Positions 95 through 58,393 of a DNA stretch of 64,000 nt are shown here, in pieces. The translations under genes were made by a program, and so were the position numbers. Numbering within the stretch: the stretch's first letter is position 1; every line of letters begins with the position of its first letter. The stretch is from Dehalococcoidia bacterium (lineage in GTDB: Bacteria; Chloroflexota; Dehalococcoidia; GIF9; AB-539-J10): assembly GCA_003562475.1 (NCBI GenBank), contig PWUU01000039.1, forward strand, positions 89-64,088, written 5' to 3'. Under the pieces are notes generated by a model, which had not been told where the DNA came from, did no database searches, and saw nothing but the letters and a program-made list of their open reading frames with translations.

Positions 95-99
95 TAGAG

Positions 100-9462: not shown

Positions 9463-9483
9463 CCGCATTCTGTCATACTGAAA

Positions 9484-11397: not shown

Positions 11398-11403
11398 ACC
11401 GGT

Positions 11404-12195: not shown

Positions 12196-12405
12196 TGCTC
12201 TCCTATCAGGCGCCAGGAATCTGGCACTACGCACCAGCTCTCGTCCTGCCTATGCTAAGCCTGCAGGTGCGCGAAGTCAATGCCAGCCGGGTCGAGGAAC
12301 CGCTCCACTCGTGTGGTTTTCCTCTCGCAACCCGACTTCGGGGAGCTTTCCTCGACGCATCGCAGCGAACGCGACTTCCGGCAGCATGGCGACCGGTGAA
12401 GAAAC

Positions 12406-12648: not shown

Positions 12649-12726
12649 ACTCACACCTCCCTGCACATATGTTCTTTGTTACTGGTTCGCGCGACGAACC
12701 GGTATCTCGTTCCGTTGCCAGGGGTT

Positions 12727-13767: not shown

Positions 13768-13779
13768 CCGCTTCTCTTC

Positions 13780-14172: not shown

Positions 14173-14280
14173 CACGTCATTCTCCCGTCGCTCACACTTT
14201 CATATATTCGCAACCATGTATATATTAACGACGGTGTCGTGCCGTGTCAATTGCAGCACACGGGCATGAGTCGAAGGCAA

Positions 14281-15483: not shown

Positions 15484-15914
15484 GGCTTCTTCCACAGATG
15501 TTGGAACAGTTGGCGCGCCATTATACCACCACGCGAAGCGACTTCCACCTGTCGAACCGTGGGTGCTCCGGAACAGGACGGGTAGGAGAAGATTACCCCG
15601 TGCTGGCACCTGTGAGGCTGTTACACCACTGCCGGCAGCGTGCTACGGACACGACGCGCACGCCCAACGAGAACACACACTCGGGAACCGAACCGGGCGT
15701 GTCCTTCTCGATAGTATCATTGGAGGAGGCATCGACACGGTGCTTCTCACTATCAGCCGCGCAACCGGCAGCGCGACTGGACGTGCCATGCGCAATCCCT
15801 ATCGCCGGCCACCACGCAGGAGAATACTGTTGCCAATTGACAACCAGCGACACTGGAAGTGCCCTCGTTAATCGCGTAAAACCTGGTCTTTACCGTCCGT
15901 GTCCCCTGTAGTAG

Positions 15915-15932
15915 GATAACGCCGGCGTTATC
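15915..15932. promoter_or_regulatory. perfect 18-bp palindrome GATAACGCC|GGCGTTATC (candidate operator)
   Basis: The palindrome lies in the 544-bp ackA/acyl-CoA-synthetase divergent intergenic region, about 95 bp upstream of the ATG at 16028. Confidence 0.3.
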
Positions 15933-16027
15933 TTCGCAGGAAGACACCGTTCTGGCGGAATCAGGCTTCAGTTGTTAGTCGCCAGCGAACCTATGAGGCG
16001 CTCTTCGCCTGCAGGAGCTACCATGAC

Positions 16028-17416: not shown

Positions 17417-17776
17417 CGATACCGCCCCTCTGTGCCTTCATCAACCGGGCGCGCGGGGGTGATCGTGCATGACGCCCACAGCGCTCTGTACCGCAGCCCG
17501 GAGGAGGTTGACAAGACGATCACCTCACTGCAACGCGCGATAGTACGTCCGACGGAGACGGTAGCTTCGCCCGCTGTTCCGTTCCTGGCGTATCACGCGT
17601 GTACGGCATCGAGGCATCACGTGGAAGAACCCTCTCCGAGATCAGTACGATCCAGCAGCAGGTGACGGACTGCCGTACCCATCGTGGGTCGCACACTACA
17701 ATCCGCACAACCCATTCAGTTCTCCCTCTCAAAAGCGTATAATTCTTCAGGCTCCCTTCCGTTTCCAGCATGTTAG

Positions 17777-19042
17777 ATGGGCACTGTAAGATTCGTTCAC
17801 TGCGCAGACCTCCACCTCGATACCCCCTTTCGGGGACTCTCTCATGTGGCGCCGGACATAGCGAAGACCCTCAACAACGCCACCTTTGCCTCCTTCGAGA
17901 CGATCATCGACCTCGCCATCACGAACCGCGTCGATTTCGTGATCGTCTCAGGGGATGTGTACGACAGTTCCGACAGGAGCCTCGCGGCGCAGTTCGGATT
18001 TAGGGATGGCCTCAGTCGACTCGCCCAACACGGCATCCCCTCCTTCGTTGCCTTCGGCAATCACGACCCGGTGAGCGGGTGGAGCAACTCCCTGGAATGG
18101 CCGGACCTCTCGTACAGGTTCGACGCCAGGGACGTTGAAGCTCGTCACATCACTCGCGACGGGACAATCATCGCCTCGGTACATGGCATCAGCTTCGCAA
18201 AGGAGGCTGTCACCGAAGACCTCTCGGCCCGCTTCCAGGCACACCGGAGTGGGGTGCCTGAGATCGCCGTGCTCCATGCGAACGTCGGCACCAACACCGG
18301 CCACGCTCCATACTCGCCCACAACTGTCGCAGCACTGGCGGAGAGGGGATTCGACTACTGGGCACTGGGCCATGTACACAGGCACCAGGTTCTCAGGACC
18401 GGCGCTCCGGCCATCGTCTACCCCGGCTGCTCTCAAAGCCGGCACCCAAACGAGACCGGACCAAAGGGCTGCTGCCTCGTTACGTTGAGCGACTCAGGTG
18501 AGCCGGACGTGCGTTTCGTGCCCACGGATGTGGTACGGTACCAACAGGAGCGCGTTGATGTGTCATCCTGTGCGACGATCGACGCCATCCAGCGTTCCGT
18601 CATGGAAGCGTGCGACTCCTTCTCGGAAGAGGCAGATGGGCGGCACCTCATACTGCGGCTCGCTCTTGCCGGCAGGACGCATCTTCAACGGGAGTTGCGG
18701 CACGGAGACACGCACCTGGTACTTGAGGAACGTCTCCGTGAAGACCTGCTGACGCGCACTCCCTGGGTATGGCTGGAACGGCTGATCCTGGACACGCGTG
18801 GGCCCTACGACATTCAGTCGCTGCGTGCACAGCAGGACTTCACCGGCGACATAGTGCGTGAGTACACGTCGATGCTCGAGGGCGACGCGGATGATGTGAC
18901 GCGTCTCAGGGAGGAGGTCGAGACCGATATGCGCACGTGGACAGCATACAGGCTGCTCACGCAGCCCTCGGTCGAAGAAGTGCGCCACCTCGCCGAAAGA
19001 GCGATGCACGAGACACTCGACTTGACAGTAGGCGAAGACTGA
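17777..19042 (+). CDS. metallophosphoesterase DNA-repair exonuclease, SbcD/Mre11-like (YhaO-type)
   Basis: Calcineurin-fold motifs are present: FVHCADLHLD, VIVSGDVYD, GNHD and GHVH. The gene ends 1 nt before the ATPase gene. Confidence 0.8.
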   Translation: MGTVRFVHCADLHLDTPFRGLSHVAPDIAKTLNNATFASFETIIDLAITNRVDFVIVSGDVYDSSDRSLAAQFGFRDGLSRLAQHGIPSFVAFGNHDPVSGWSNSLEWPDLSYRFDARDVEARHITRDGTIIASVHGISFAKEAVTEDLSARFQAHRSGVPEIAVLHANVGTNTGHAPYSPTTVAALAERGFDYWALGHVHRHQVLRTGAPAIVYPGCSQSRHPNETGPKGCCLVTLSDSGEPDVRFVPTDVVRYQQERVDVSSCATIDAIQRSVMEACDSFSEEADGRHLILRLALAGRTHLQRELRHGDTHLVLEERLREDLLTRTPWVWLERLILDTRGPYDIQSLRAQQDFTGDIVREYTSMLEGDADDVTRLREEVETDMRTWTAYRLLTQPSVEEVRHLAERAMHETLDLTVGED

Positions 19043-19043
19043 C

Positions 19044-43678: not shown

Positions 43679-44866
43679 ATGGCCCGCTGTATCTTCCATG
43701 TGGACCTTGATGCATTCTTCGTAGCCGTGGAGCAACTGCACAACCCGTCGCTGCGAGGAAAGCCGGTGGTCGTCGGAGGAAATCCGGGCTCGCGAGGAGT
43801 GGTATCGGCAGCATCTTATGAGGCTCGACGCTATGGTGTACACTCGGCGATGCCGCTCATGCAGGCACAACGACTCTGCCCCCAAGCCTTCTTCGTCCCG
43901 TTGCACTTCTCGCGTTACGCCGAGGCCTCACGACAGTTCATGTCGCTGCTGGAGAGCATGTCCCCACTCATTGAAACCCTCGGCCTTGATGAGGCGTTCC
44001 TTGACATGAGCACCATTCTCAGGGATTTCGAACAGGCACGTTCACACGCCATGATACTCAAGCACCGCGTGCGCCAGGAACTGGGACTGACCGTCTCGGT
44101 CGGAGTGGCCACATGCAAGACCGTCGCCAAGGTCGCCTCGGACCATGGTAAGCCCGATGGCCTCGTGCTCGTGCCACCGGGAGAAGAGAGGAGTTTCCTG
44201 GCGCCACTCGACGTCCGGAGGCTGCCAGGTGTGGGCAAGAAGACAGCTGAATGCCTGTATGAGTTGGGTGTCCGGACCATAGAAGATCTTTCCATTCTTT
44301 CCGAAGAAGTGCTCCGTCTGAAGATCGGCAAGTATGGCGATACCCTGCTGCGTCATGCGAGAGGCATCGACACCAGTCCAGTCGAGCCCCACGGGGAACC
44401 GAAGTCCATTAGCCGCGAGACAACTTTTCAGGCCGACCTCGTCGACTCTGCCTTCCTTCAGAGTTCGCTGCATGCGATGTGCCGGGAGGTAGCGCAGGAT
44501 CTCCGGGACCACCGCAGACGGGCGGGAGCTGTAGCGCTCAAGCTTCGTTACGAGGATTTCCAGACGGTCACGAGGCAGACCTCTCTACGAGAACACACGA
44601 GCGAAGCCGCAGTGATCTTCACTGCGGCCGGGGCGCTCCTCAGAACAGTCCTCTTGAGCGAGCGACGACGCGTCCGCCTCATTGGAGTCAAGGCACTCCG
44701 ATTGTCCGGGCCCGAACGCCAGCTTGATATGTTCTCGCGAGATGCAGAAAAGCTCCAGAATTTCGAACAGGCAGTTACGGAGCTCCGCAGCCGGTACGGA
44801 CCAGAATCCATCCGCACGCTCCGCAACCTTCAGGATAGAAGCGATCTTTTTCCGCGTAGCACTTGA
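43679..44866 (+). CDS. dinB: DNA polymerase IV
   Basis: Contains HVDLDAFFVAVE, PVVVGG and S.SYEAR..GV. The little-finger domain is present. Confidence 0.9.
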   Translation: MARCIFHVDLDAFFVAVEQLHNPSLRGKPVVVGGNPGSRGVVSAASYEARRYGVHSAMPLMQAQRLCPQAFFVPLHFSRYAEASRQFMSLLESMSPLIETLGLDEAFLDMSTILRDFEQARSHAMILKHRVRQELGLTVSVGVATCKTVAKVASDHGKPDGLVLVPPGEERSFLAPLDVRRLPGVGKKTAECLYELGVRTIEDLSILSEEVLRLKIGKYGDTLLRHARGIDTSPVEPHGEPKSISRETTFQADLVDSAFLQSSLHAMCREVAQDLRDHRRRAGAVALKLRYEDFQTVTRQTSLREHTSEAAVIFTAAGALLRTVLLSERRRVRLIGVKALRLSGPERQLDMFSRDAEKLQNFEQAVTELRSRYGPESIRTLRNLQDRSDLFPRST

Positions 44867-44892
44867 CAGACATCACAACAAGCCTCTATCAT
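44863..44892 (+). promoter_or_regulatory. putative sigma70-type promoter of the ilv-leu operon (TTGACA - 18 nt - TATCAT)
   Basis: The -35 hexamer at 44863-44868 overlaps the dinB TGA. The -10 hexamer is at 44887-44892. Confidence 0.4.
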
Positions 44893-44908
44893 TCTTGACC
44901 AACACGTC

Positions 44909-45004
44909 ATGGACACACCGGCAAGAATAACCTCCCTTGGCCTCATCCTTAGCATCACTATTATCGTGCGCACCATGCGTGCGCCTGGGAGGCTGGCCGG
45001 CTAG
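44909..45004 (+). CDS. ilv-leu operon leader peptide (31 aa, Ile/Leu/Val-rich)
   Basis: Translates to MDTPARITSLGLILSITIIVRTMRAPGRLAG. Nine of the 14 codons at positions 7-20 are I/L/V. It is followed by a hairpin and a terminator, and it is homologous to the leader at 52891-52992. No obvious SD sequence. Confidence 0.55.
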   Translation: MDTPARITSLGLILSITIIVRTMRAPGRLAG

Positions 45005-45029
45005 TCCACACTGTTAGATAACGACAAGC

Positions 45030-45067
45030 AAAGGGGCTCTCCCAGGCGGAGAGCCCCTTTCTTTTAT
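45030..45067 (+). terminator. intrinsic terminator (attenuator) upstream of ilvB
   Basis: AAAGGGGCTCTCC-CAGGC-GGAGAGCCCCTTT, a 13-bp stem followed by CTTTTAT. It ends about 40 nt before the ilvB ATG. Confidence 0.7.
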
Positions 45068-45108
45068 CCGCGCTGCTGACAGCGCAACACCGAGAGGAAA
45101 GGAGCAGC

Positions 45109-46803
45109 ATGAAGAGGACAGGTGCACAGATCATCTGCGAATCCCTGGTAAGGGAGGGGACGGATGTAATCTTCGGCATTTCCGGCGGCACTGTCATTCC
45201 ACTGTACGATGCCTTCTCGGAGTATCCCCAGATTCGCCGGGTGCTGGTACGCCACGAGCAGGCCGCCGCCCACGCCGCTGCGGGCTATGCCCGCTCGAGG
45301 CAGAAGGCAAGCGTGTGTGTTGCAACCTCTGGTCCTGGCGCCACAAACCTCGTGACGGGAATCGCGGACGCCTACATGGATTCGACTCCTATGGTGGTGA
45401 TAACGGGTCAGGTCTCAACCGGGCTGATCGGAAGAGACGCTTTCCAGGAATGCGATATCACCGGCATCACATTGCCCATCATAAAACACAATTACCTGGT
45501 ACACTATGTACGCGACCTCGCTCGCACCATCAAGGAGGCGTTCTACATCGCCCAGACTGGCAGACCCGGTCCGGTGCTGATCGATATCCCCAAGAACGTG
45601 CAACTGGCAACGGACGACTTCCACTACCCGGAGACCGTCGACCTGCCGGGCTATGCACCCGTGTCTGACCCCGACCCATCACAGGTGGCAAATGCAGCAC
45701 AGTTGCTCAACAAGGCCACTCGTCCCGTTATCATCGCAGGAAGGGGAGTGACCATCTCGCAGGCCTACGATGAGCTGAGAGAGCTTGCCGAATCCTTTCA
45801 GGCGCCCGTTGTGCACACACTCCTAGGCCTTGGCTCATTTCCTCCCCGGCACGACCTCAACCTGGGAATGCTGGGACACCACGGCATCGTGGCTGCCAAC
45901 AGGGCTGTGCAGGAGGCCGACCTCATTCTGGCCGTAGGCACACGCTTCGGTGACCGCACAACAATGAGAACACGGGATTTCGCCCGGAGGGCAGTCGTTG
46001 TCCACATCGATATCGACCCCGCCGAGATCGGCAAGAATGTAGCTCCTTTCGCAACAGTTATCGGCGATGCCAGGGCAGTCCTGCGCCAGCTCAACCCCCT
46101 GCTGAAAAGAGCCGAGAGGCCCGGGTGGCTCTTACAGGTGCGAACATGGCGAGATGCACACCCGCTGGTGGCAGCCAACCGGACTTCGAGCCTGTCAGCC
46201 CGCACTGTCATCCGCCAGATATGTCGCTCGGCCGACGAACACACCGTAATCGTCACAGGTGTAGGGCAGCATCAGATGTTCGCCGCGCAGGAGTACGCCT
46301 CACCGAGGGTGAATGGTCTCATTTCTTCCGGGGGACTGGGGACTATGGGCTTTGAATTGCCTGCTGCGATCGGAGTCCAGATGGCGTCACCGCAGGACTC
46401 AGTGTGGGTTGTCGCCGGTGATGGTGGATTCCAGATGACCATGCAGGAGCTCTCAACCGTCGTACAGGAAGGCCTGCCAATTAAGATTGCTGTGATCAGA
46501 AATGGTTACCTTGGCATGGTGAGGCAGTGGCAGGATCTCTTCCAGCAGCACAACTACGTCGATGTCGCGCTTCATGCGCCCGATTTCGTGAAGCTTGCCG
46601 ATGCCTACGGGATCGCGGCAGTTCGCGTCGAGAAGGAAGAGGACCTGGTACCTGCACTCGGCCGCGCGAGTGCTCACCCCGGGCCGTTCCTCATCGATTT
46701 CGCCGTGGACCCCGAGGAGAACGTGTATCCCATGGTCGCGCCGGGAGAGGGCCTGGACTGCATCATAGAAGCTCCCGGCAGGATCACCGCAGTAAAGACG
46801 TAG
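45109..46803 (+). CDS. ilvB: acetolactate synthase, large (catalytic) subunit
   Basis: ThDP enzyme. The N-terminus is G...I...L...G.D..FG..GG, and the ThDP motif is GGLGTMGF...VAGDGGFQM. Confidence 0.9.
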   Translation: MKRTGAQIICESLVREGTDVIFGISGGTVIPLYDAFSEYPQIRRVLVRHEQAAAHAAAGYARSRQKASVCVATSGPGATNLVTGIADAYMDSTPMVVITGQVSTGLIGRDAFQECDITGITLPIIKHNYLVHYVRDLARTIKEAFYIAQTGRPGPVLIDIPKNVQLATDDFHYPETVDLPGYAPVSDPDPSQVANAAQLLNKATRPVIIAGRGVTISQAYDELRELAESFQAPVVHTLLGLGSFPPRHDLNLGMLGHHGIVAANRAVQEADLILAVGTRFGDRTTMRTRDFARRAVVVHIDIDPAEIGKNVAPFATVIGDARAVLRQLNPLLKRAERPGWLLQVRTWRDAHPLVAANRTSSLSARTVIRQICRSADEHTVIVTGVGQHQMFAAQEYASPRVNGLISSGGLGTMGFELPAAIGVQMASPQDSVWVVAGDGGFQMTMQELSTVVQEGLPIKIAVIRNGYLGMVRQWQDLFQQHNYVDVALHAPDFVKLADAYGIAAVRVEKEEDLVPALGRASAHPGPFLIDFAVDPEENVYPMVAPGEGLDCIIEAPGRITAVKT

Positions 46804-46813
46804 GAGAACCTCC

Positions 46814-47314
46814 ATGGAAGACAGATTGCACACCCTCGTCTCGCTGGTACAGGATGAGCCCGGGGTCCTCACAAGGATCGCCGGACTCTTCCGCCGCCGT
46901 GGATTCAATATTGAGAGTCTCTCTGTCGGCCACTGCGAGCAACCGGGACTCTCACGCATGACTATAGTAGTCAAGGGGGGCGATGCTGAGGTCGAGCAGG
47001 TGACGAAGCAGCTCGACAAGCTCATCAACGTAGTAGCCGTGACTGACATTACGCGCCGCGACATGGTGGCAAGGGAACTGGCTCTCATCAAGGTGTCCGC
47101 CGAATCGGACGACCGTAGCGAGATAATGCAGATGGTCGACATATACCGTGCCAAGATCGTTGACGTGGCTTCGGACTCGTTGACGGTCGAGGTTACAGGC
47201 GGAGAAGACAAGATAGACTCGCTGCTTACACTGCTTCGACCCTTCGGAATCACGGAAATGGCTCGTACAGGACGGACCGCCCTCACAAGAGGCAGCCAGT
47301 CCAGCATCAAATAA
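46814..47314 (+). CDS. ilvN: acetolactate synthase, small (regulatory) subunit
   Basis: The ACT domain starts [27 protein letters not shown]. Confidence 0.9.
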
Positions 47315-47336
47315 GAAGGCTTTGGAGGATTTGAAC

Positions 47337-48329
47337 ATGGCCAGGATCTACTACGACAGCGACGCCAACCTTTCACATCTTAAAGGGAAGCTTACCGGCA
47401 TCATAGGCTACGGCAGCCAGGGGCATGCGCATGCGCAGAACCTGAGAGACAGCGGATGTGACGTGGTGGTTGCCAGCAAGCCCGGCGGTGTCGGCTGGAA
47501 GGCAGCCGAGGCCGACGGGTTCACGGTTATGACCGTGGCGGATGTTACAAAGAAGGCCGACGTACTCACTCTCCTGGCGCCCGATAACCAGCATGCCGCA
47601 ATATACTCGGAATCCATCGAGCCTCACCTGACTGCAGGTAAGACCCTCATGTTCGCTCATGGGTTCAACATTCACTACTCCCAGATCGTGCCACCCGGGG
47701 ACGTCGACGTCAGTATGGTGGCCCCAAAGTGTCCCGGACACATGCTGCGCACTATCTACACGGAGAACGCCGGGCCTCCGGCCATCATGGCCGTATACCA
47801 GGACGTCTCGGGCAACGCGAAGGAGGTGGCCCTGGCATACGCCAGGGGACTTGGGTGTACACGTGCAGGAGTCATCGAGACAACGTTTGCTGAGGAGACG
47901 GAAACGGACCTCTTTGGCGAACAGGCCGTGCTCTGTGGAGGAGTGACGGCTTTGATTAAGGCAGGCTTCGACACGCTTGTCGAGGCTGGTTACCAGCCCG
48001 AAATCGCCTACTTCGAGTGCCTCAATGAACTGAAACTGATCGTCGACCTTATCTACCAGGGTGGGCTGAAATACATGCGCTATTCGGTAAGCGACATTGC
48101 CGAGTTTGGCGACTACACCCGCGGGCCGCGGGTCATTGACGATTCCGTCCGCGAGGAGATGCGCAATATCCTCGGTGAGGTCAAGAATGGCATCTTTGCA
48201 CTCGAATGGGTCCTCGAGAACCAGGCTGGTCGACCACACTTCACCGCGATGAAACGAAACGAACAGCAGGAGCTCATCGAAGTTGTTGGTGAGCAACTGA
48301 GAGGAATGATGCCATGGACGAAGAAGTAG
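47337..48329 (+). CDS. ilvC: ketol-acid reductoisomerase
   Basis: ATG at 47337 after GGAGGA. Contains [17 protein letters not shown]. Confidence 0.9.
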
Positions 48330-49951
48330 ACATTACGAAGGACGACTACGCGTCGTCTGATGTGCATTCGACAGCAGCCGCAAGTGATACGGTACTGATC
48401 TTCGATACATCGCTGAGAGACGGCGAGCAGGCCGCAGGCACGAGTCTCACCTCGGGAGAAAAGCTCTCCATAGCCCGGCAACTCGACAGGCTTGGTATCG
48501 ACATCATCGAGGCCGGTTTCCCCGTCAGTTCGCCTGGTGACTTCGAAGCTGTGCAGCTTATCGCAAGGGAAGTCAGACGCCCCATCATATGCGGACTGGC
48601 CCATTGCAGACCTGCCGCGATCGACAGGGCGTGGGAGGCTCTCCAGGATGCGGCGCGCCCGCGCATCCACGTGTTTCTCTCCGCCTCCGACATCCAGCTC
48701 GCACACATGCTCAAGAAGAGCCGTCTCGAGGCCCTGGAGATGGCCCGCGAGATGGTCGCCAGGGCGAAGAGCTACACGCACGATGTTGAGTTCTCTCCAA
48801 TGGATGCCACGCGCGCCGAGCCCGACTTCCTGTATCTGTTGCTTGAGGCGGTTATTGACGCCGGAGCAGTCACCGTGAACATCGCCGATACCGTTGGCTA
48901 CAGCATGGTGCACGATTTCGGCAATCTCTTAGAGGGCATCCTGTCAGACGTGCCGAACATTCGCCAGGCATGCCTCAGCGTGCACTGCCACGACGACCTC
49001 GGACTCGCGGTTGCAAACAGCCTTGAGGCAGTGCGACGTGGCGCCCGCCAGGTGGAATGCACCATCAACGGCATTGGCGAACGCGCCGGGAACGCCGCGC
49101 TCGAAGAAGTCGTCATGGCGCTGCATACGCGTCGGGACGTGTTCGGGCTCAGGACCAACGTCGATACCACTCAGCTCTATAAGACGAGCAGGATAGTGAG
49201 CGACCTCACAGGATTCGTGGTACAGTCGAACAAGGCAATCGTGGGAGCGAACGCGTTCCGTCACCAATCGGGCATTCACCAGGATGGAATGGTCAAAGAG
49301 TCAACTACCTACGAGATCATGGATCCTCGCTCCGTTGGCATTCCGGCCAGCAGCCTCGTGCTCGGCAAGCTCAGCGGCAAACACGCCTTCCGGGAGCGCC
49401 TGGCCGAGCTGGGCTTCTCGCTGAGTGATGAAGCTTTGGCCCACGCGTTCCGTGCGTTCAAGGATCTCGCAGACAAGAAACGAGAGATTGCTGACCGCGA
49501 TCTTGTGTCGCTCGTCGGCGAGGAGCTGCGTCAGGAAACTCAGGTGTACAAACTGGATCATGTGGATGTATCCTGCGGCGACCATAGCCTCCATTCGGCA
49601 GCGGTTCGACTCATCGGCCCGGATGGGCAGGCCCTTGAGGACGCTGCACTGGGGACAGGACCGGTTGATGCGGTCTACCAGGTCATTAACCGCATCATAG
49701 GTATCCCTAATTCTCTGGTCGAATTCACGATCAACGCGAACACTGAGGGCTTCGACGCAATAGGAGAGGTGTTGATTCGAATTGAGAGTGAGGGCCGTCT
49801 CTACACCGGACGGGGCGCATCAACCGATATCGTCGTAGCCAGTGCAAAGGCTTATATGAACGCGCTCAACCGACTCATTATCTTCCACCGGGGTGCGGCA
49901 GAACAAGGCGCCCTCTACAACGCCACCCAGGGCATTCACGAGGCAGCGTGA
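48314..49951 (+). CDS. leuA: 2-isopropylmalate synthase
   Basis: Contains [11 protein letters not shown] and H.H.D.G...AN. The C-terminal LeuA dimerisation/regulatory domain is present. The gene overlaps the ilvC end by 16 nt. Confidence 0.9.
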
Positions 49952-51246
49952 TGTCGACCATCACAGAGAAGATTATTGCGGCACACTCCGGGCGAGACGC
50001 CATCTCCCCTGGAGAGTTTGCCAATGTCTCGGTCGACATGGTGCTCGCCAATGACATCACAGGACCGCTCGCCATCACGGAATTCCGTAAGCTGGGCGTC
50101 ACACACGTCTTCAACCCGGCACGAATCGTGATGGTCCCCGATCACTTCATACCTAACAAGGACATCGCCTCGGCCATTCAGGCCAGGGAACTACGCGACT
50201 TCGCCCGCGAACAGAGCGTGCTGTACTACGAGACAGGAAGAGGAGGTATCGAGCACGTCCTTCTGCCCGAAGAGGGCCTTGTTGGGCCTGGACAGGTCAT
50301 CATAGGAGCTGACTCTCACACCTGCACGTACGGCGCGCTGGGAGCTTTCGCCACAGGAATGGGGTCTACCGACATTGCAGCAGCAATGGCCACGGGCGAC
50401 ATCTGGATGAAGGTTCCTCCTACCATCAAGTTCGTTCTTCACGGACATCTCCAGCCCTGGGTCGGCGGCAAGGATCTCATTCTGCACATTATTGGCGACA
50501 TCGGTATCGACGGTGCCTTGTACACTGCCATGGAGTTCCATGGAGAGGCTATCAATAGCCTCGACATGGATGGACGCTTCACCATGACGAACATGGCAAT
50601 AGAGGCCGGTGCCAAGGCGGGCATCTGCCCCGTGGACGCAACCGTACAAGAATACATCGCCGCACATCCACCCCGCAGTGGCACCGCTCCTCACAAAGTA
50701 CATGCAACAGATTCCGATGCGGACTACTACCGAATCATCGAGTACGACGCGTCCAGCATCCAGCCTATCGTGGCCTTTCCACACCTGCCGTCAAACATTA
50801 AGCCGGCGAGCGAGGCAGGCGACGTGCCGATTGACCAGGTAGTGATCGGCAGTTGCACCAACGGACGATTGAGTGACCTCAGGGTCGCCGCCCAGGTCTT
50901 GAGGGGCCATCGTATACACCAATCACTGCGGTGCATTGTGATCCCGGGCACTCAACGCATCTATCGCCAGGCCATGGAGGAGGGGCTGGTGCACGTGTTT
51001 ATCGACGCAGGAGCTGTCGTCAGCACACCAACTTGCGGCCCGTGCCTTGGAGGCTACATGGGGATTCTCGCGCCCGGAGAACGCTGCCTCTCAACCACCA
51101 ACCGGAACTTCGTCGGCCGGATGGGCAGTCCACAATCCGAGGTATATCTTGCCGGGCCAGCCGTTGCCGCCGCTACTGCGATTACCGGACGCGTTACCAG
51201 TCCGGTCGAGGTGGCCGGTCGCCCAACAAAGGGGACGTCATGGTAG
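49951..51246 (+). CDS. leuC: 3-isopropylmalate dehydratase large subunit
   Basis: The ATG overlaps the leuA TGA by 1 nt. Aconitase-family Cys ligands are present (GADSHT...GSCTNGR...CG.C.G). Confidence 0.9.
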
Positions 51247-51737
51247 TGCTACGCGGCAGGGTACACCCTTACGGCGCGGATGTGGACACCGACGCCATCA
51301 TCCCTGCCAGATATCTCAATGTGTCAGAACCTGCGCTTCTGGCCGAGCACTGTATGGAGGATATTGACCCCGGCTTCCGGAGCCGCGTTTCGGCAGGAGA
51401 CATCATTGTGGCAACCGCCAACTTCGGCTGCGGTTCGTCCCGAGAGCATGCCCCCATCGCCCTCAAGGCATGCGGCATATCTTGCGTCATTGCTCATAGC
51501 TTCGCGCGAATCTTTTTCCGTAATTCCCTCAATATCGGCCTGCCGCTGCTCGAGTGTGCCGAAGCTGTCGATTCCTGTACACCCAACGATACACTGGAAG
51601 TGGACCTCATTGGCGGCAGGGTCACCAACATATCAAGAGACCTCACATTCACCGCTAAGCCGTACCCGGAATTCATGATGGGTATCATCAATTCGGGAGG
51701 GCTCATAGCGTATACCAGGCGCAGACTGGAGGAATAG
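51240..51737 (+). CDS. leuD: 3-isopropylmalate dehydratase small subunit
   Basis: ATG at 51240, a 7-nt overlap with leuC. Contains DVDTD.IIPA.YL and [12 protein letters not shown]. Confidence 0.9.
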
Positions 51738-51741
51738 ACTC

Positions 51742-52839
51742 ATGGGTTACAGGATAGCAGTACTTCGCGGCGATGGCATCGGCCCGGAGGTAACGGCTGA
51801 GGCACAGAAGGTCCTGGAGGCAGTTGCCGGCCGTTTTCAGCACGGTCTCCACTTCGAGGAAGCACCGGTTGGGGGGGCAGCACTCGACACGATGGGCACC
51901 CCTATGGCGGACGAGACTCTTACACTATGTCAGGGTTCCGACGCGATTCTGCTCGGTGCGGTCGGTGGCCCGAAGTGGGACGATGCCAGGACTGATCTGC
52001 GGCCGGAACAGGCACTGTTCCGGCTGCGCAAGGAACTCAACCTCTTCGCCAATATCAGGCCCGTCATGTCCTACCCGATGCTGGTCGACAAGAGTCCATT
52101 GCGGCCCGAGATTGTGACAGGCGCGGACATCATCTTCGTCCGAGAACTTACCGGCGGGCTGTACTTCGGTCAGCCCAAGAAACGCTGGGAGACCCCGCAG
52201 GGCAGGCGTGCGGTGGACTCGGAGGAGTACTCCGAGCACGAGATCGCGAGAGTGGTGCGCGTGGCGTGCGAACTGGCCAGGAATCGGCGCCGCATGGTTG
52301 TCTCGGTAGACAAGTTCAATGCGCTGATCTCTTCACGACTGTGGCGCCAGGTGGCAACCGAGGTAGCGGAGGAATACCCCGACGTCGACCTGTCCCACAT
52401 GCTGGCCGACACCTTTTCAATGCAACTCATTATGAATCCCACTCGGTTCGATGTTGTTGTCACAACCAACATGTTTGGAGATATCTTCACTGATGAGGCT
52501 GCGGTGCTCGCAGGTTCAATGGGCTTATTGCCTTCGGCCAGTCTGTCCGGACTCCCGACGGGAAGGACACTCGGACTGTATGAACCGATCCATGGCTCCG
52601 CTCCCGACATTGCCGGGGAGGGGATTGCCAATCCCCTTGCTGCCATACTCAGTGCAGCCTTGCTTCTGAGATACTCGCTTGACCTCGAATTCGAGGCGCA
52701 GGCTATCGAAGTCGCAGTCACTTCAGTCCTGGAGGATGGCTACAGAACAAGCGATATCTACTCCGAGGGCACGAAAAGGGTGACCACCCAGGAGATGGGG
52801 GACCTCATCGTCGCAAAGATTCGTGCGGCGAAGGGTTGA
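51742..52839 (+). CDS. leuB: 3-isopropylmalate dehydrogenase
   Basis: Contains I.VL.GDGIGPEV, NLFANIRP and NMFGDI.TDEA. Confidence 0.9.
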   Translation: MGYRIAVLRGDGIGPEVTAEAQKVLEAVAGRFQHGLHFEEAPVGGAALDTMGTPMADETLTLCQGSDAILLGAVGGPKWDDARTDLRPEQALFRLRKELNLFANIRPVMSYPMLVDKSPLRPEIVTGADIIFVRELTGGLYFGQPKKRWETPQGRRAVDSEEYSEHEIARVVRVACELARNRRRMVVSVDKFNALISSRLWRQVATEVAEEYPDVDLSHMLADTFSMQLIMNPTRFDVVVTTNMFGDIFTDEAAVLAGSMGLLPSASLSGLPTGRTLGLYEPIHGSAPDIAGEGIANPLAAILSAALLLRYSLDLEFEAQAIEVAVTSVLEDGYRTSDIYSEGTKRVTTQEMGDLIVAKIRAAKG

Positions 52840-52864
52840 CACTGTGTAGCGGTGTTTCTACAAT
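52836..52864 (+). promoter_or_regulatory. putative sigma70-type promoter (TTGACA - 17 nt - TACAAT)
   Basis: Near-consensus hexamers at 52836-52841 (overlapping the leuB TGA) and 52859-52864. Confidence 0.5.
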
Positions 52865-52890
52865 GTACTCCACACAAACGAGAGTTCGGG

Positions 52891-52992
52891 ATGAAGACTC
52901 CAGCCGTGCCTGCGACAACCCCGGTGGTAGCAGTGGTGCTTATCGTGCGCACCGAGAGTGCGCACGGGAGGATTCTTCGACCGGTAGAGTAG
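52891..52992 (+). CDS. ilvE leader peptide (33 aa, Val/Leu/Ile-rich)
   Basis: Translates to MKTPAVPATTPVVAVVLIVRTESAHGRILRPVE, with the run VVAVVLIV at positions 12-19. It is followed by a 9-bp hairpin, an antiterminator segment and a terminator. Confidence 0.6.
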   Translation: MKTPAVPATTPVVAVVLIVRTESAHGRILRPVE

Positions 52993-53020
52993 GCGGAGAT
53001 AGTAAGTCCACAGGAAAGAG

Positions 53021-53055
53021 AAGAAGCCTCCCGAAGGGGAGGCTTCTTCTTGTAT
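53021..53055 (+). terminator. intrinsic terminator (attenuator) upstream of ilvE
   Basis: AAGAAGCCTCCC-GAAG-GGGAGGCTTCTT, a 12-bp stem followed by CTTGTATT. Confidence 0.65.
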
Positions 53056-53186
53056 TCCCGGCTCGTAGCGAAAGGAGGACAACGAGAGTACACGACCATG
53101 GTGCAACTCACGTCTTCTGGCAGTTTGCAGCGCTACAGAAATAGAGAGAGCTTTCGCTCATAAGTACGGATAGGAGGAATGCAACA

Positions 53187-54110
53187 TTGGAACCACAGCC
53201 TTACGCATTTTTTCAAGGACAGTATATGCCCCTCAAGGATGCCAAGATCGGGATTCTCACCCAGGCGCTGCACTACGGCACGGCATGTTTCGGTGGGATT
53301 CGCGCTAACTGGGATGCCGAGAACGAGCAGTTCTGCCTGTTCCGGCTCAAGGACCACTATCGACGCCAGCTTGACGCCTGCAAGATCCTGAATATCTCCC
53401 TCCCCTATGACGAGCACAAGATGGCTGAGTTCACCGTGGAGACTCTGCGGCGGTCCGGATTCAGGGAGAACCTCTACTGCAGACCGCTTGCGTACAAGTC
53501 ATCCGAGGCCATCGGCGTGAAGCTGCACGACCTTGAGGACGATTTCTTCGTCATAGTCACTCCCCTCCCGCCATATCTCGGTACTGGCGGCATCAGGTGC
53601 TGTATGTCTTCGTGGCGGCGCGTGAGCGACAGCCAGATATCCCCACGAGGGAAGATCACGGGCATCTATGTGAACAGCGCCCTTGCGAAGACCGATGCCA
53701 ACCGGGCCGGTTTCGACGAGGCCATCATGCTTAACGAGAAAGGACATGTCTCCGAAGGCACCGGAGAAAACATCTTCGTCGTCATCAAGGGGAACCTCAT
53801 CACCCCGCCACCATACGACAGCATTCTCCTGGGTATCACGAGAGATACGGTGATGCAACTGGCTGAGAACGAGCTGGGCATTCCAACAGTGGAGCGAAGT
53901 ATCGACAGAAGTGAACTCTACGTGGCCGACGAGGCTTTCTTCACCGGCACGGCAACCAACGTGGCGCCCATCGTCTCCATCGATTACAGAACCATCGGCA
54001 ACGGTGAAACGGGTCCAATCACCGCCAGGCTTCAGGAGCTGTTCAACCAGGTTGCGTTCGGCAGAAACCCCAAGTACTCCGAGTGGTACACAATCGTCAG
54101 GTACGACTAG
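53187..54110 (+). CDS. ilvE: branched-chain amino acid aminotransferase
   Basis: TTG start 9 nt after AGGAGG. Class IV aminotransferase motifs are present (EG.GENIF.V, P....ILLGITRD, E.F.TGTA). Confidence 0.9.
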   Translation: MEPQPYAFFQGQYMPLKDAKIGILTQALHYGTACFGGIRANWDAENEQFCLFRLKDHYRRQLDACKILNISLPYDEHKMAEFTVETLRRSGFRENLYCRPLAYKSSEAIGVKLHDLEDDFFVIVTPLPPYLGTGGIRCCMSSWRRVSDSQISPRGKITGIYVNSALAKTDANRAGFDEAIMLNEKGHVSEGTGENIFVVIKGNLITPPPYDSILLGITRDTVMQLAENELGIPTVERSIDRSELYVADEAFFTGTATNVAPIVSIDYRTIGNGETGPITARLQELFNQVAFGRNPKYSEWYTIVRYD

Positions 54111-54259
54111 TGTCGCGAGCAATCAGCGCTTGCACCTTCGCCCCGATAGAATAGCCGGGACGAAGAGCATTATGTTGCTATGCGAGACCCCATTGCTATT
54201 TCAGCTGACCGGGTCATGCGTGAGCGCCAGAAGATCAACACAGCAATGATGATGCGCAG

Positions 54260-54538
54260 TTATTCCGATCGGCTCACGCCAATCACGTTCGCCCGCTTCA
54301 TGAGCCGGGACTTGAGCCGTGCTGTCTTGTTCTTGTGAAATAATCCCTTGGTGGCCGCGCGGTCCAGGGTGGACACAGCGCGGATGGTTGCCGCCTGCGA
54401 CTGCTCCGGGTCGCCAGACGCCATTGACTTCTTTGCCTGCTTAAGAATCGTGCGCGTTCGTCCCCTTAGGTAACGATTATGCTGCCGCCTTCTCTCTTGC
54501 ACCCTGGCAGCCTTACTTACTGACCTGCTCCCTGACAA
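54260..54538 (-). CDS. rpsT: 30S ribosomal protein S20
   Basis: A basic 92-aa protein. SKAARVQERRRQHNRYLRGRTRTILKQAKK...A...LD.A..KG..HKN.A.R.KSRL fits S20. The TTG start overlaps the relA 3' end. Confidence 0.85.
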   Translation of the reverse strand: MSGSRSVSKAARVQERRRQHNRYLRGRTRTILKQAKKSMASGDPEQSQAATIRAVSTLDRAATKGLFHKNKTARLKSRLMKRANVIGVSRSE

Positions 54539-56690
54539 ATGATTCTCCTTTTCTCACTACGCTGATTACACTCCACAGCGACTGTATTCTGGCCACAAGA
54601 TTGCTGAGCTGTGAGGTGCCGGTCACCTCGACGTCCACATGCAGCGAGGCCATGCCCCCCTCATCACGGGTAAAACCAACATCGGTGATGTTGACGCCCG
54701 CCTCAGCAATAACCGCGCTGATATCCCGGAGCAGCGCCGTTCGATCCCACGCGTCTATCTGAAGCTTGACAGGGTAGACCTGTGTGACGTCGCCCCAGTC
54801 CACGGCTACAAGCCGTTCCTTTTCTGATTCGTTAATGACATTGATACAGTCACGGCGATGGACGGTGACGCCACGACCCTGGGTAATATACCCGATAATC
54901 TCCTCGCCCGGCAAGGGATTGCAGCAGTTGGCTATCCTCGTATACAGGTCCCCAACGCCCAGCACCCGTATACTCCCCGGGCTCACTCGCTTCGGCGCCG
55001 ATACCTCTATGGTCTTCTCTCGAGGCTCGAGTTCAGCGCTTAGCTTGACCGCCACCTGAGATATTGTAATATTCCCCCTTCCAATGGCAAGATACAGGTC
55101 TTCTGGACTGCCATAGCCAAGTTTGCTCGCGAGCTTCTCAGCACCGGGCAGGGGAACGGCCAGGCGCTTCAATCCGCTCTCGAGCATCTGTCGGCCGGTC
55201 TCGATGCTCTGACTGCGCTCCTGCTTGTTGAACCACTGGCGGACTTTGCTCTGTGCGTATGAGGTGCGAACGTAGCCAAGTTCGGGGTTCAGCCAGTCGA
55301 GACTGGGCCCTCGCTCAGTCTTTGAAGCCACGATCTCGACCACATCACCATTGTTCAGCGGTTGGTTAAGCTGCACCAGCTTGCCGTTTACTTTCGCGCC
55401 AATACAACGATAGCCAAGGTCGGTGTGAATGCGAAACGCGAAATCCAGAGGCGTTGCTCCCTTCGGCAGATCTTTGATCTCTCCCATCGGTGTGTAGACG
55501 AACACCTGGCCGGTAAGAACATCAGCCTTGAGCGACTCAACGAACTGTTCTCCATCGAGCTCATCCCGACGTTCGGCAAGCTCCTGAAGCCACGCGATAC
55601 GTGGATCCATAGCGCGATCCTTTCTACTGCCCTCTTTGTAGTGCCAGTGAGCTGCAACTCCGAACGTGGCTACCTGGTTCATCTGGTGAGTCCTGATCTG
55701 TATCTCGATCGGCGTGGTTCCGTTGCATAGGACAGTAGTATGAAGCGACTGATAGCCATTGTCCTTGGGATTCGCAATGTAGTCGTTGAACTCTTCGATA
55801 ATCGGGTGCCAGAAGTTGTGTACGACACCCAGAGCCTTATAGCAATCTGCCACAGAGTCCACCAGAACACGCAGCGCGAACAGATCGTGAATATCACCCA
55901 CACTCTTACCCTGCTCCGCATATCGCTTCGCCTTCAGGTACGTGCTGTAGATATGCTTTGGACGTCCCAGCACCCGCGCCTCAACTCCCTGCCTGTGCAA
56001 CTCTTCCGACAGGGACCGAATTGCCTCACCCACAAAGCCCTCGCGTTCGGCCCGCTTGGTCGCAATCAAGCGTGAGATCCTCCGATACTGCTTCGGCTCA
56101 AGATACCGAAACGCGAGATCTTCGAGCTGCCATTTCGTACGCCGAAGACCTAGCCGATGCGCAAGCGGCGCATAGACATCCAGCGTCTGGCGCGCAATAG
56201 CACGACGCCGGCCTAGCGGCAAAGCGCCAAGCGTCCTCATGTTGTGAAGCCTGTCGGCGAGCTTGATGAGCACGACTCGCAGGTCCTCAGCCGTAGCCAT
56301 TAGCAGCTTGCGAAGGTTCTCAGCTTGAGCCTTGGAGTCGATTTCCTTCTCCTCGCTCCTGTTCGCCAGGCGTTTGAGCGTGGTCACGCCATCAACAAGG
56401 CTTGCCACTTCGGACCCGAAACACGCGGAGATTCTCTCCTGAGAGATATCACAGTCTTCAATGACGTCATGGAGCAGTGCAGCAGCAATGGATTCGGCAT
56501 CAAGCTGATACTCAACCAGTGTCAGGCTCACATTGAGCGGGTGCTCAAGATAAGGCTCCCCCGACGCGCGCAGCTGTCCCTCGTGTGCCTTCGCAGCGAA
56601 CTCATACGCCGAGCGGATGAACTCAAGCTTTTCAGGAGGCAAGTAAGCGCCGGCCTCCCTCAGCAGTGTCTCAACATCCATAGCTGGCAT
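54513..56690 (-). CDS. relA: bifunctional (p)ppGpp synthetase / guanosine-3',5'-bis(diphosphate) 3'-pyrophosphohydrolase
   Basis: The HD hydrolase domain (HPL.V...L......D...I.AALLHDV.ED) is followed by the RelA/SpoT synthetase domain (YQSLHT), then TGS and ACT domains. Confidence 0.9.
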   Translation of the reverse strand: MPAMDVETLLREAGAYLPPEKLEFIRSAYEFAAKAHEGQLRASGEPYLEHPLNVSLTLVEYQLDAESIAAALLHDVIEDCDISQERISACFGSEVASLVDGVTTLKRLANRSEEKEIDSKAQAENLRKLLMATAEDLRVVLIKLADRLHNMRTLGALPLGRRRAIARQTLDVYAPLAHRLGLRRTKWQLEDLAFRYLEPKQYRRISRLIATKRAEREGFVGEAIRSLSEELHRQGVEARVLGRPKHIYSTYLKAKRYAEQGKSVGDIHDLFALRVLVDSVADCYKALGVVHNFWHPIIEEFNDYIANPKDNGYQSLHTTVLCNGTTPIEIQIRTHQMNQVATFGVAAHWHYKEGSRKDRAMDPRIAWLQELAERRDELDGEQFVESLKADVLTGQVFVYTPMGEIKDLPKGATPLDFAFRIHTDLGYRCIGAKVNGKLVQLNQPLNNGDVVEIVASKTERGPSLDWLNPELGYVRTSYAQSKVRQWFNKQERSQSIETGRQMLESGLKRLAVPLPGAEKLASKLGYGSPEDLYLAIGRGNITISQVAVKLSAELEPREKTIEVSAPKRVSPGSIRVLGVGDLYTRIANCCNPLPGEEIIGYITQGRGVTVHRRDCINVINESEKERLVAVDWGDVTQVYPVKLQIDAWDRTALLRDISAVIAEAGVNITDVGFTRDEGGMASLHVDVEVTGTSQLSNLVARIQSLWSVISVVRKGESFVREQVSK

Positions 56691-56791
56691 AATAACTCAG
56701 CGCTGCTGGACAAGCAAACGGGGCTGTACGGACTACTCGCGCCAGGATGATATCATCCAGATCAGAGTCGACCTGTATCACCAGGTGCACT

Positions 56792-57514
56792 ATGCTGCAA
56801 CACCTTGTCGATGGACTCAGGGAACTCGGACGCGACATCAGCCCCGCACAGATCGAGATGTTCGAGCTCTATCGACTCGAGTTGTTGCGATGGAACCGGT
56901 ACACGAACCTTACCGCGATCACAGACCCTGCGCAGGTGGAGTTGCGACACTTCCTTGATTCGCTCACGGTCCTGCAGGCGCTTGATACGATATCTCCGTT
57001 AGAATCACAATTGAAGATGATTGACGTGGGCACAGGTGCCGGCTTTCCAGGAATACCGCTGAAGGTTATGTTGACCGATTGCCACCTCGTCCTCCTTGAA
57101 GCGACGGGGAAGAGGGTCGCTTTTCTCACGCACATCATCGACCTGCTCCGCCTGTCTGGCAGTGAAGTGGTACAGGGCAGAGCGGAGGACGTGGCTCACG
57201 ACCCCACACATCGAGAGTCCTATGGTCTCGTCGTGGCCCGTGCCGTTGCGCCACTTGCGACACTCGCCGAGCTTTGTCTCCCTTTCGCCTCTATGGGCTC
57301 GCTATTCGTCGCCCTGAAAAAGGGCGAATTAGGCGAGGAACTCTATGCCGCACAGAATGCTGTCAAGATGGCCGGGGGAGGAGATACACGAGTCATCACC
57401 GTGCGATTGCCTCAACTGGCCGATGACCGGCGCCTCGTCTGTATCAGGAAAGTCGCTGCCTCCCCGGACCGCCTCCCCCGACGCCCCGGAATCCCGTCGA
57501 AGCGCCCGCTTTGA
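56792..57514 (+). CDS. rsmG: 16S rRNA (guanine527-N7)-methyltransferase
   Basis: Contains W N..TNLTAI, HF.DSL and the SAM motif DVGTGAGFPGIPLK. Confidence 0.85.
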   Translation: MLQHLVDGLRELGRDISPAQIEMFELYRLELLRWNRYTNLTAITDPAQVELRHFLDSLTVLQALDTISPLESQLKMIDVGTGAGFPGIPLKVMLTDCHLVLLEATGKRVAFLTHIIDLLRLSGSEVVQGRAEDVAHDPTHRESYGLVVARAVAPLATLAELCLPFASMGSLFVALKKGELGEELYAAQNAVKMAGGGDTRVITVRLPQLADDRRLVCIRKVAASPDRLPRRPGIPSKRPL

Positions 57515-57625
57515 GGCTGCCCAGAAGAGCTTCGCCTCTTCGACGAAGGGGGCGCTGAGCGCCGGTGCCTCACAGCGAGAGGCAAATGTGTTACGATACG
57601 ACTGCACTAACAGAGGAGACAACGT

Positions 57626-58393
57626 ATGAGTTCGGGACTGTTCTCGCTCGATGGCAAGGTGGCTCTCGTCACCGGTGCGAGCAGGGGTATAGGCAAAGAG
57701 ACTGCTCTTGCCTTCGCGAGAGCGGGAGCAGATGTGATCCTGGGAGACATCACCGACGACCTTGAGGACATCGTCGGACAGGCGCGTTCTCTCGGACACA
57801 GGGTGAAAGGTGTACACGTAGACGTGACGGATAACGCACAGGTATACGATGCCGTTGCCACGACTCAACGGCAGTACGGAAGGATTGACATCCTCGTCAA
57901 CAATGCAGGGACCCACCTTGTCGAACGCTTCGCTGAAGGTTCCCCGGAGGCCTGGGACAGGTGCCTCCACGTCAACCTTCTCGGGCACATGGTCTTCTGT
58001 CATGCCGTGATCGGCGGCATGATCGAGCGCCAGTACGGCAAGATCGTGAATGTCGCCTCCGATGCAGGCAGGGTTGGCAGCCTCGGACAGGCCGTATACG
58101 GCGCAGCAAAGGGCGGTATCATCGCGTTCACCCGCAACCTGGCGGTGGAGTTAGCGCGCTACAGGATCAATGTCAATTGCGTCTCACCGGGACTCATCAA
58201 TACCGACATGTGGAACTCAACACGGCGGGACAAACCGAAGCTGGCGGACGCATACGAGAACACTGTCCTCTGGAAGCGACTCGGTGAACCAGGGGAAGTC
58301 GCCACGGCAATTCTGTTCCTCGTCTCGGATGAAGCAGAATACATCACCGGCCAGACGCTCAGTGTCAATGGCGGGGTGTTCATAGCATCGTAA
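57626..58393 (+). CDS. SDR family oxidoreductase (FabG-like)
   Basis: Contains TGASRGIG and NNAG. The catalytic motif Y-x3-K is present as YGAAKGG. Confidence 0.85.
   Translation: MSSGLFSLDGKVALVTGASRGIGKETALAFARAGADVILGDITDDLEDIVGQARSLGHRVKGVHVDVTDNAQVYDAVATTQRQYGRIDILVNNAGTHLVERFAEGSPEAWDRCLHVNLLGHMVFCHAVIGGMIERQYGKIVNVASDAGRVGSLGQAVYGAAKGGIIAFTRNLAVELARYRINVNCVSPGLINTDMWNSTRRDKPKLADAYENTVLWKRLGEPGEVATAILFLVSDEAEYITGQTLSVNGGVFIAS

Follow-up and report, generated by a model that had tools for sequence, protein, structure and literature searches.

The 64,000-nt window analysed here (contig PWUU01000039.1 of a Dehalococcoidia bacterium) contains an ilv-leu gene run that ends in ilvE, and the 347-nt gap between leuB and ilvE holds a compact regulatory leader. 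We interpret this leader as a ribosome-mediated, leader-peptide transcription attenuator that is dedicated to ilvE and has its own promoter, a reading to which we assign a probability of about 0.78. The expression of ilvE is most likely turned up when valine, isoleucine, or leucine is scarce. An initial annotation of this DNA had proposed a textbook four-segment attenuator. The comparative evidence supports the attenuator and its separate promoter, with two corrections, which concern the role of the first hairpin (1:2) and the U-tract of the terminator.

The structural parts of the leader proposed in the initial annotation were confirmed in the sequence. The promoter, TTGACA-17-TACAAT, overlaps the end of leuB, and the leuB stop codon TGA (52837-52839) sits within its -35 hexamer. 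It is an 11/12 match to the consensus and the best and sole such match on both strands of the 12 kb from 46000 to 58000; transcription would start near 52871-52873. The 33-codon leader open reading frame (ORF) contains the run VVAVVLIV, in which Val, Leu, and Ile account for seven of the eight consecutive codons 12-19. The 9-bp hairpin 1:2 (-15.5 kcal/mol) starts within these codons; its arms, CGTGCGCAC (52944-52952) and GTGCGCACG (52958-52966), enclose a loop of 5 nt. It is followed directly by a competitor segment, GGGAGGATTCTT (52966-52977), which equals GGGAGGCTTCTT (53037-53048) in the terminator 3' arm at 11 of 12 positions. With at most one mismatch, this 12-mer has three sites on the two strands of the window, namely segments 2, 3 (as the complement), and 4, where 0.31 sites are expected; three sites were reached in 0/100 shuffles. 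The terminator hairpin (53018-53032/53037-53051) has 15 bp and a folding energy of -28.8 kcal/mol, and the folding z-score of the region 52871-53060 is -4.7 relative to dinucleotide shuffles. The aminotransferase identity of the downstream gene is borne out by NF005146 (352.8 bits, cut-off 279) and TIGR01122 (325 bits, cut-off 245.55).

The unit is conserved in close relatives. A protein search with IlvE, restricted to one genome per species, gave 80 loci. In all 11 of the loci with IlvE proteins 80-92% identical to that of the window (L001-L011), a leader of about 30-33 codons with the motif ...VVVAAA(I/M)LIVRTxGAHGRL... lies upstream of ilvE, and the promoter hexamers, the hairpin, GGGAGGCUUCUUC, and the core GAAGCCUCCC-loop-GGGAGGCUUC are also kept. 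Together with about 16 metagenome contigs, 11 related Dehalococcoidia genomes thus contain the whole series of promoter, ORF of about 30 codons, hairpin, GGGAGG-CUUCUUC competitor, and GAAGCCUCCC/GGGAGGCUUC hairpin. Variation falls in the promoter spacer, the 5' untranslated region (UTR), the N-terminal codons, and the linker that leads from the stop codon to segment 3; both promoter hexamers are retained in 12 genomes, and in metagenome loci too, with spacers of varying length. A scan of metagenome contigs with the exact pattern GTGCGCACN5GTGCGCNNGGGRGG returned 35 loci, mostly leaders of the ilvE type or of a second, ilvB type described below. No leader ORF or hairpin was found upstream of ilvE in L012-L080, where ilvE is at most 68% identical, and nhmmer profiles of both leader classes gave no credible match in the distant loci (best E=0.017). 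As judged from these searches, the leader family is confined to a subclade. The closest ilvE relatives place the source of the window in an uncultured Dehalococcoidia lineage.

An alignment of 28 non-identical ilvE-type sequences (A3) was used to examine translation and pairing. The promoter, ORF, hairpin, competitor, and terminator are kept upstream of ilvE in these sequences, and an in-frame ORF from ATG to stop is present in 28/28. Gaps within the ORF are 3 or 6 nt long, which is the pattern expected of a translated frame, and gaps past the stop codon have arbitrary lengths. The synonymous positions of the stem codons (GTG CGC, GCG, GGG) are invariant, and variation is seen at codons that are unpaired (T-x-[G/S/R], [H/R/Q/L/P]); in its 3' half, the ORF is therefore constrained as RNA and not as peptide. 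The leader stop codon lies 3-18 nt past GGGRGG in every family member. Over the ten codons that end at the V of VRT, the 27 ilvE-type leaders counted are composed of V 36%, A 26%, I 18%, L 10%, and M 7%, and the ilvB-type leaders of I 41%, L 24%, and V 16%. The platform stays constant and its sensor codons switch from one regulated gene to another; from sequence comparison, this is strong circumstantial evidence that ribosomes read the ORFs to sense amino acids.

Two features of the leader codons are recorded separately. Just in front of the hairpin (52930-52943 in the window, columns 44-60 of A3), ilvE-type leaders show nucleotide-level conservation at their Ala codons, GCA GCA GC(T/A), and at a Leu-Ile pair, CTT ATC. 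Although 26% of the ilvE-type sensor codons are Ala, the window has a single Ala there; the Ala codons may represent a sensed amino acid or, instead, an RNA-pairing constraint. At the position of the SD-like (Shine-Dalgarno-like) GAGAG of the window, the relatives have CAGGUUG.

The proposed helices are supported by the alignment and by folding. For hairpins 1:2 and 3:4 together, 91% of the cells in A3 are paired, compared with 42-63% when the partners are slid; the terminator helix 3:4 alone has 88% paired cells and both-sided changes at 5 pairs. For the antiterminator, in which segment 2b pairs with segment 3, 86% of the cells are paired, compared with 46-64% in the slid controls. In L005 and L006, an A->G change in segment 3 is accompanied by U->C changes at both of its partners, one in 2b and one in segment 4. 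In the window, the 2b:3 helix joins 13 pairs with a single mismatch, and its energy is -22.4 to -25.6 kcal/mol. Folding calculations, which the initial annotation had named as the place where its scheme could fail, show that this pairing is far from negligible, since it is the minimum-energy fold once segment 1 is masked and segment 4 is unmade. In 42 of 43 folded sequences, the same restrictions give 7-16 pairs that join the 2b region to the terminator 5' arm; these 42 are the members with a terminator-like stem as well as a leader ORF. The exception, L101, forms 3 pairs only and has a 5-bp stem.

The informative covariation came from the ilvB class and from the comparison between classes, and not from within the ilvE class. 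In the ilvB class, part of 2b pairs with the terminator loop, and all 107 antiterminator cells from 10 sequences are paired (100%). Two compensatory pairs were observed, C-G->U-A in 5/10 and U-A->C-G in 1/10, with a covariation score that was reached by 1/500 shuffles. Because their 3' partners sit in the terminator loop, these compensatory pairs are independent of 3:4. By homology, this sequence covariation supports the antiterminator design at ilvE as well.

The regulatory cycle would proceed as follows. Transcripts would begin at the promoter overlapping the leuB stop codon, and read-through transcripts from the ilv-leu genes probably enter the unit too; both kinds would include the 33-codon ORF with V V A V V L I V. 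RNA polymerase is proposed to pause past the invariant GUGCGCAC hairpin. When charged Val-, Ile-, and Leu-tRNAs are ample, the ribosome would cross the hairpin and trail the polymerase over 2b to the stop codon 13 nt beyond. Segment 2b would then be masked or sterically unavailable as segments 3 and 4 emerge, so that 3:4 would form and transcription would terminate before ilvE. A ribosome stalled on the Val, Leu, or Ile codons would leave 2b (CGGGAGGAUUCUUC) bare; 2b would pair with the terminator 5' arm (GAAGAAGCCUCCCG) before the terminator hairpin can form, and the polymerase would enter ilvE. Modelled stalls at codons 12-19 mask the RNA to about 52938-52959 and leave 2b free. A masking model that allowed pairing across the ribosome gave artefactual long-range pairs for stalls at codons 16-19 and was rejected; folds of the downstream RNA were used instead.

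Several observations weigh against this scheme, and they concern the switch, the terminator, and the nature of the evidence. The initial annotation had argued that hairpin 1:2 and the 2:3 helix exclude each other because they share base 52966. This proved incorrect: the two helices coexist in the minimum-energy fold, and both form in the window and in 34/40 family members, so that 1:2 does not sequester segment 2 as in the textbook four-segment logic. In ribosome-free RNA up to 53036, 1:2 and 2b:3 lie side by side at -43.3 kcal/mol, compared with -35.9 kcal/mol when segment 3 is single-stranded; the median gain from the antiterminator in the ilvE class is about -9 kcal/mol. Read-through is thus predicted for a transcript without a ribosome, a departure from the textbook scheme. 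The sole competitor of 2:3 within 1:2 is a weak extension between CUUAUC (52939-52944) and GGGAG, which is conserved at the nucleotide level. On these models, hairpin 1:2 is not a convincing anti-antiterminator, and what blocks antitermination is probably the ribosome itself, positioned on segment 2 and the stop codon. We consider it more likely that 1:2 serves as a polymerase pause and as an element that synchronizes ribosome and polymerase. In the ilvE class, modelling places the ribosome at the stop codon over only the 3' end of 2b, and steric hindrance or the weak 1:2 extension would have to complete the blocking of 2b.

The terminator is the second point. The tail after the ilvE hairpin is U-poor, and those of some relatives are worse, such as GCUAUAUGGC in L005; the ilvB-type hairpins, unlike these, have good U-tracts. 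Taking just the conserved 10-bp core as the stem leaves UUCUUGUAUU as the ilvE tail, which is U-rich on that count only. Neither 1-20000 nor 46000-58000 is richer in canonical hairpin-plus-U terminators than shuffled sequence. With a U-poor tail and no such enrichment, efficient intrinsic termination is not assured; termination at the ilvE hairpin may be partial or reliant on further features. The ilvE class shows little covariation, since its stems and core hardly vary, and shuffle tests on it were not decisive. The element belongs to an uncultured lineage represented by metagenome-assembled genomes (MAGs), and its function is a prediction from sequence comparison and folding. In Streptomyces coelicolor, mutation of the candidate regulatory codons in a leader-like ORF of ilvB had no effect (PMC1262725), which illustrates that predictions of this kind may fail.

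These points leave room for other explanations of the same elements. TRAP and PyrR are models for protein-mediated attenuation. A lineage-specific, trans-acting RNA- or DNA-binding protein might similarly recognize the almost unchanging direct repeat of a palindrome, GUGCGCAC (N5) GUGCGC, next to GGGAGG and choose between the antiterminator and the terminator, with a secondary or joint role for the ORF. The six central pairs of hairpin 1:2 are unchanged in 28/28 ilvE-type and 10/10 ilvB-type sequences, two classes whose spacers diverged freely, although covariation would be expected of a purely structural hairpin; a common module serves at least four leader classes before different genes; and 1:2 has no evident anti-antiterminator role in folding. 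All of this would suit a protein-binding site. However, the hairpin lies inside a conserved ORF in a constant frame, the upstream sensor codons track the gene, which a pure protein switch would not need, and the hairpin of a Met-rich leader class is shortened and altered (UGCGC/GCGCA) with the remaining module kept. Combined coding and pairing constraint with recent duplication can account for the invariance, no candidate protein was identified, and GTGCGCAC occurs at 5 sites in the window against 2.2 expected, with 3/5 of them within the two leaders. We regard a protein switch as quite improbable. As a dispersed operator motif, GTGCGCAC was rejected, with no enrichment outside the two leaders.

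The ORF and the alternative folds could also be real while 3:4 affects the stability or processing of the mRNA, the access of Rho, or the translation of ilvE through the structured 136-nt 5' UTR. The U-poor tails of the ilvE class and the lack of canonical terminator enrichment would fit such a function, as would the unusually long, partly conserved spacer of about 136 nt with its SD-like GAAAGGAGG and GC-rich stem-loop. We nevertheless judge it distinctly improbable: the sister ilvB element is built in the same way and ends in a canonical U-tract, UUCUUGUUU stands directly past the conserved 10-bp core stem in many ilvE-type relatives, and the ilvE Shine-Dalgarno (SD) sequence is about 120 nt from the hairpin, with no conserved pairing to it found. 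The simplest arrangement, a terminator at the end of the ilv-leu operon beside a separate constitutive ilvE promoter, with a fortuitous ORF and 2b match, draws on the position of the hairpin about 180 nt past the leuB stop codon and on the lack of another terminator between leuB and ilvE. Since the promoter is upstream of the hairpin, its own transcripts would have to cross it. The ORF, its frame, the stretch rich in branched-chain amino acids, and the 11/12 arm copy are kept in 28 sequences, which is statistically unexpected, and a paralogous unit stands at the 5' end of the operon, with no upstream operon to terminate. This arrangement is very improbable and is effectively refuted by the comparative data. 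The ribosome-mediated attenuator remains the preferred reading; its hairpin may also form a conditional end of the ilv-leu transcript, and no other terminator was found between leuB and the leader.

An extended form of the attenuator, which we consider unlikely, would treat GUGCGCAC-N5-GUGCGC-NN-GGGAGG and the CCUCCC/GGGAGG terminator as a portable, lineage-specific platform with default-ON logic, whose near-invariance goes beyond base pairing. The platform would have been duplicated before at least four genes, with only the sensor codons swapped (Ile/Leu, Val, Met, or an FIF motif). Its invariance might stem from a trans-acting factor, from a sequence-specific polymerase pause, or from mimicry of the SD and anti-SD sequences; in the case of mimicry, the 16S 3' end of the translating ribosome would hold the GGGAGG of 2b away from the anti-SD-like CCUCCC of segment 3. 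If the platform exists, the default would be ON and termination would occur only with a ribosome on 2b, a logic that differs from that of trp.

Some motifs of the leader resemble parts of the translation machinery. The CCUCCC of segment 3 (53027-53032) resembles the anti-SD sequence of 16S rRNA. GGAGG-like sequences occur in 2b (52966-52971), in segment 4 (53037-53042), in a block past the terminator (53074-53079), and in the ilvE SD (53171-53176). In the ilvB class, GGGAGG lies 6 nt upstream of the last sense codon, which is a typical spacing between SD and start codon. Pairing of the leader with the 16S 3' end of the ribosome is conceivable.

Table 1. Coordinates of the ilvE attenuator, its sister element, and related leaders (window positions unless a locus is given)
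Feature	Position	Strand	Description
ilv-leu gene order	ilvB (45109), ilvN, ilvC, leuA, leuC, leuD, leuB (51742-52839), 347-nt gap, ilvE (53187-54110)	+	ilvN, ilvC, leuA, leuC, and leuD are presumed names
ilvE unit promoter	52836..52864	+	sigma-70 type, TTGACA-17-TACAAT; -35 at 52836-52841, -10 at 52859-52864
SD-like GAGAG	52880..52884	+	weak; 6 nt upstream of leader ATG; putative function
Leader ORF	52891..52992	+	33 codons + TAG, MKTPAVPATTPVVAVVLIVRTESAHGRILRPVE; ATG at 52891, stop TAG at 52990-52992
Sensor codons 12-19	52924..52947	+	V V A V V L I V; directly 5' of hairpin 5' arm and running into it
Hairpin 1:2	52944..52966	+	CGUGCGCAC, loop CGAGA, GUGCGCACG; 9 bp, -15.5 kcal/mol
Segment 2b	52965..52978	+	CGGGAGGAUUCUUC; antiterminator 5' strand; copy of terminator 3' arm
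Segment 3	53018..53032	+	GAGAAGAAGCCUCCC; terminator 5' arm; partner of 2b in antiterminator
Segment 4	53037..53051	+	GGGAGGCUUCUUCUU; terminator 3' arm; loop GAAG at 53033-53036
Tail 3' of ilvE hairpin	53052..53061	+	GUAUUCCCGG; U-poor
ilvE SD	53171..53176	+	AGGAGG; kept in all relatives
ilvE	53187..54110	+	branched-chain amino acid aminotransferase, TTG start; proposed regulated gene
Sister attenuator before ilvB	44863..45069	+	ilvB is the first gene of the ilv-leu run
ilvB promoter	44863-44892	+	TTGACA-18-TATCAT
ilvB leader ORF	44909-45004	+	MDTPARITSLGLILSITIIVRTMRAPGRLAG; Ile/Leu-rich
ilvB terminator	45030-45060	+	13 bp, then U-tract CUUUUAUCC
Met-class leader	L112 2527-2665; L103 1172-1312	-	shortened hairpin UGCGC/GCGCA; GGGAGGCU + GAAGCCUCCC module kept
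FIF leader example	L090 ~5474-5620		

The gene order was read from the order and lengths of the ORFs, and ilvB, leuB, and ilvE each score above a curated NCBIfam cut-off. The ilvE start position is common to the window and its relatives. The sister element before ilvB is presumably the first attenuator implied by the initial annotation, which had called the ilvE leader the second one. It contains the same GUGCGCAC-N5-GUGCGC-NN-GGGAGG module as the ilvE leader, and its hairpin is followed by CCUGGGAGGCU. The block common to the two leaders, TTATCGTGCGCACC..G.GTGCGC..GGGAGG, indicates that they are paralogous.

Two further classes were found outside the window. In L103 and L112, a Met-rich leader, MAMELVRQMYMAAAMAMVHLMMRPNAHLGGCR, lies 5' of a second branched-chain aminotransferase paralogue just past ilvE, and its codons suggest a methionine-linked role for this paralogue. 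In L082, L085, L086, L090, and L107, a leader with an FIF motif, ...AKFIFTVRTGGAHGRF*, precedes a gene for an AMP-forming acyl-CoA ligase (634 aa, FadD-like, under the NCBIfam cut-offs); this class has the terminator AUUACCUCCC/GGGAGGUAAU, a matched 2b (GGGAGGU), and the common hairpin module. As far as the sequences indicate, all leader classes that share the hairpin and competitor module constitute an undescribed lineage-specific family.

The spacer of about 136 nt between the hairpin and ilvE is partly conserved and has some features of its own. Within 53056-53170 lies the SD-like GAAAGGAGG (53071-53079); a small ORF behind it was considered and rejected, as no conserved start codon was found. 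The block CCCGYC..CCNGGGC..GCAGCGCC.CGG.AGGCGG is GC-rich and folds into a stem-loop in most relatives in single-sequence folds; it is degenerate in the window (~53111-53143). RNAalifold gave no consensus fold for the spacer (-0.01 and -0.15 kcal/mol). Past ilvE, no canonical hairpin-plus-U terminator was found in the gap 54111-54259, which separates ilvE (+) from a convergent minus-strand ORF (54260-54538) that resembles ribosomal protein S20. The organism may rely little on canonical intrinsic terminators.

Database searches did not link the leader to a described family. Rfam gave no family in the whole window at gathering thresholds, and the best result of a permissive search of 52700-53300 was Phe_leader at 26.7 bits (cut-off 55) on the wrong strand. 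The leader peptides had no match in Pfam or NCBIfam at E<=10, and T-boxes were detected neither in the window nor in seven related, more distant loci. A c-di-GMP-II riboswitch (RF01786, 55.4 bits, cut-off 53.5) was detected at 3321-3404 (-) of L013, an unrelated and more distant Dehalococcoidia locus. Leader-peptide attenuators in Dehalococcoidia or Chloroflexi were not found in the searchable literature.

The mechanism itself is well known, and the advance is incremental. The ilvGMEDA (ilvL) and ilvBN (ivbL) operons of E. coli and Salmonella are controlled by classical leader-peptide attenuators, and ilvL controls ilvE among other genes. The leader described here resembles ilvL and ivbL in its short ORF with Val, Ile, and Leu codons, its alternative antiterminator and terminator hairpins, and its predicted readout of branched-chain tRNA charging. 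It differs in having no sequence relationship to them in Pfam, NCBIfam, or Rfam in a leader ORF that crosses segment 2 and stops beyond it, and in a hairpin 1:2 that does not exclude 2:3; unlike ilvL, it is a dedicated ilvE attenuator with a promoter at the end of the ilv-leu run. In the E. coli trp operon, 1:2 sequesters segment 2, untranslated transcripts terminate, and 1:2 is also a pause hairpin. The ilvE leader likewise has a hairpin soon past the sensor codons, well placed as a pause, and mutually exclusive 2:3 and 3:4 helices. In contrast to trp, where the stop codon precedes segment 2, the stop codon lies 13 nt past 2b, and the adjacent 1:2 and 2b:3 helices form together, which predicts read-through without translation.

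Outside the Proteobacteria, a three-hairpin attenuator has been reported for ilvBNC of Corynebacterium glutamicum (PMC11857589), and candidate ilvB leaders for Mycobacterium and Streptomyces (PMC1262725). The actinobacterial ilvB leaders share with our element ORFs with Ile/Val/Leu runs in a non-proteobacterial setting and terminator hairpins, and they resemble the sister element at 44863-45069; they belong to another phylum, have no sequence similarity, and precede ilvB, not ilvE. In Staphylococcus aureus, the ilv-leu operon is reported to have an attenuator with a leucine-rich peptide that acts together with CodY (PMC5794164). It is also a leader-peptide attenuator of branched-chain biosynthesis outside the Proteobacteria, but ours is Val-rich and shows no sequence similarity to it. 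T-box riboswitches have been reported for ileS and trp genes in Chloroflexi, including Dehalococcoides (PMC2494555). Like them, the ilvE leader is predicted to read tRNA charging and to choose between an antiterminator and a terminator; unlike them, it is based on an ORF and has no specifier loop or T-box sequence.

The finding would extend leader-peptide attenuation to uncultured Dehalococcoidia (Chloroflexota), whereas the leaders that one survey reported from cultured Dehalococcoides are T-boxes (PMC2494555). The family represents a natural experiment, in which one platform carries different sensor codons before ilvB, ilvE, a second aminotransferase gene, and an acyl-CoA ligase gene. The sensor codons may thereby aid the prediction of gene function in MAGs, as in the Met-rich leader of the second aminotransferase, and a family model, of the RNA or of the leader, could be seeded directly from these sequences. 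For the organism, the ilvE unit at the 3' end of the ilv-leu run could act as a conditional internal terminator that couples ilvE to the upstream genes or uncouples it from them.

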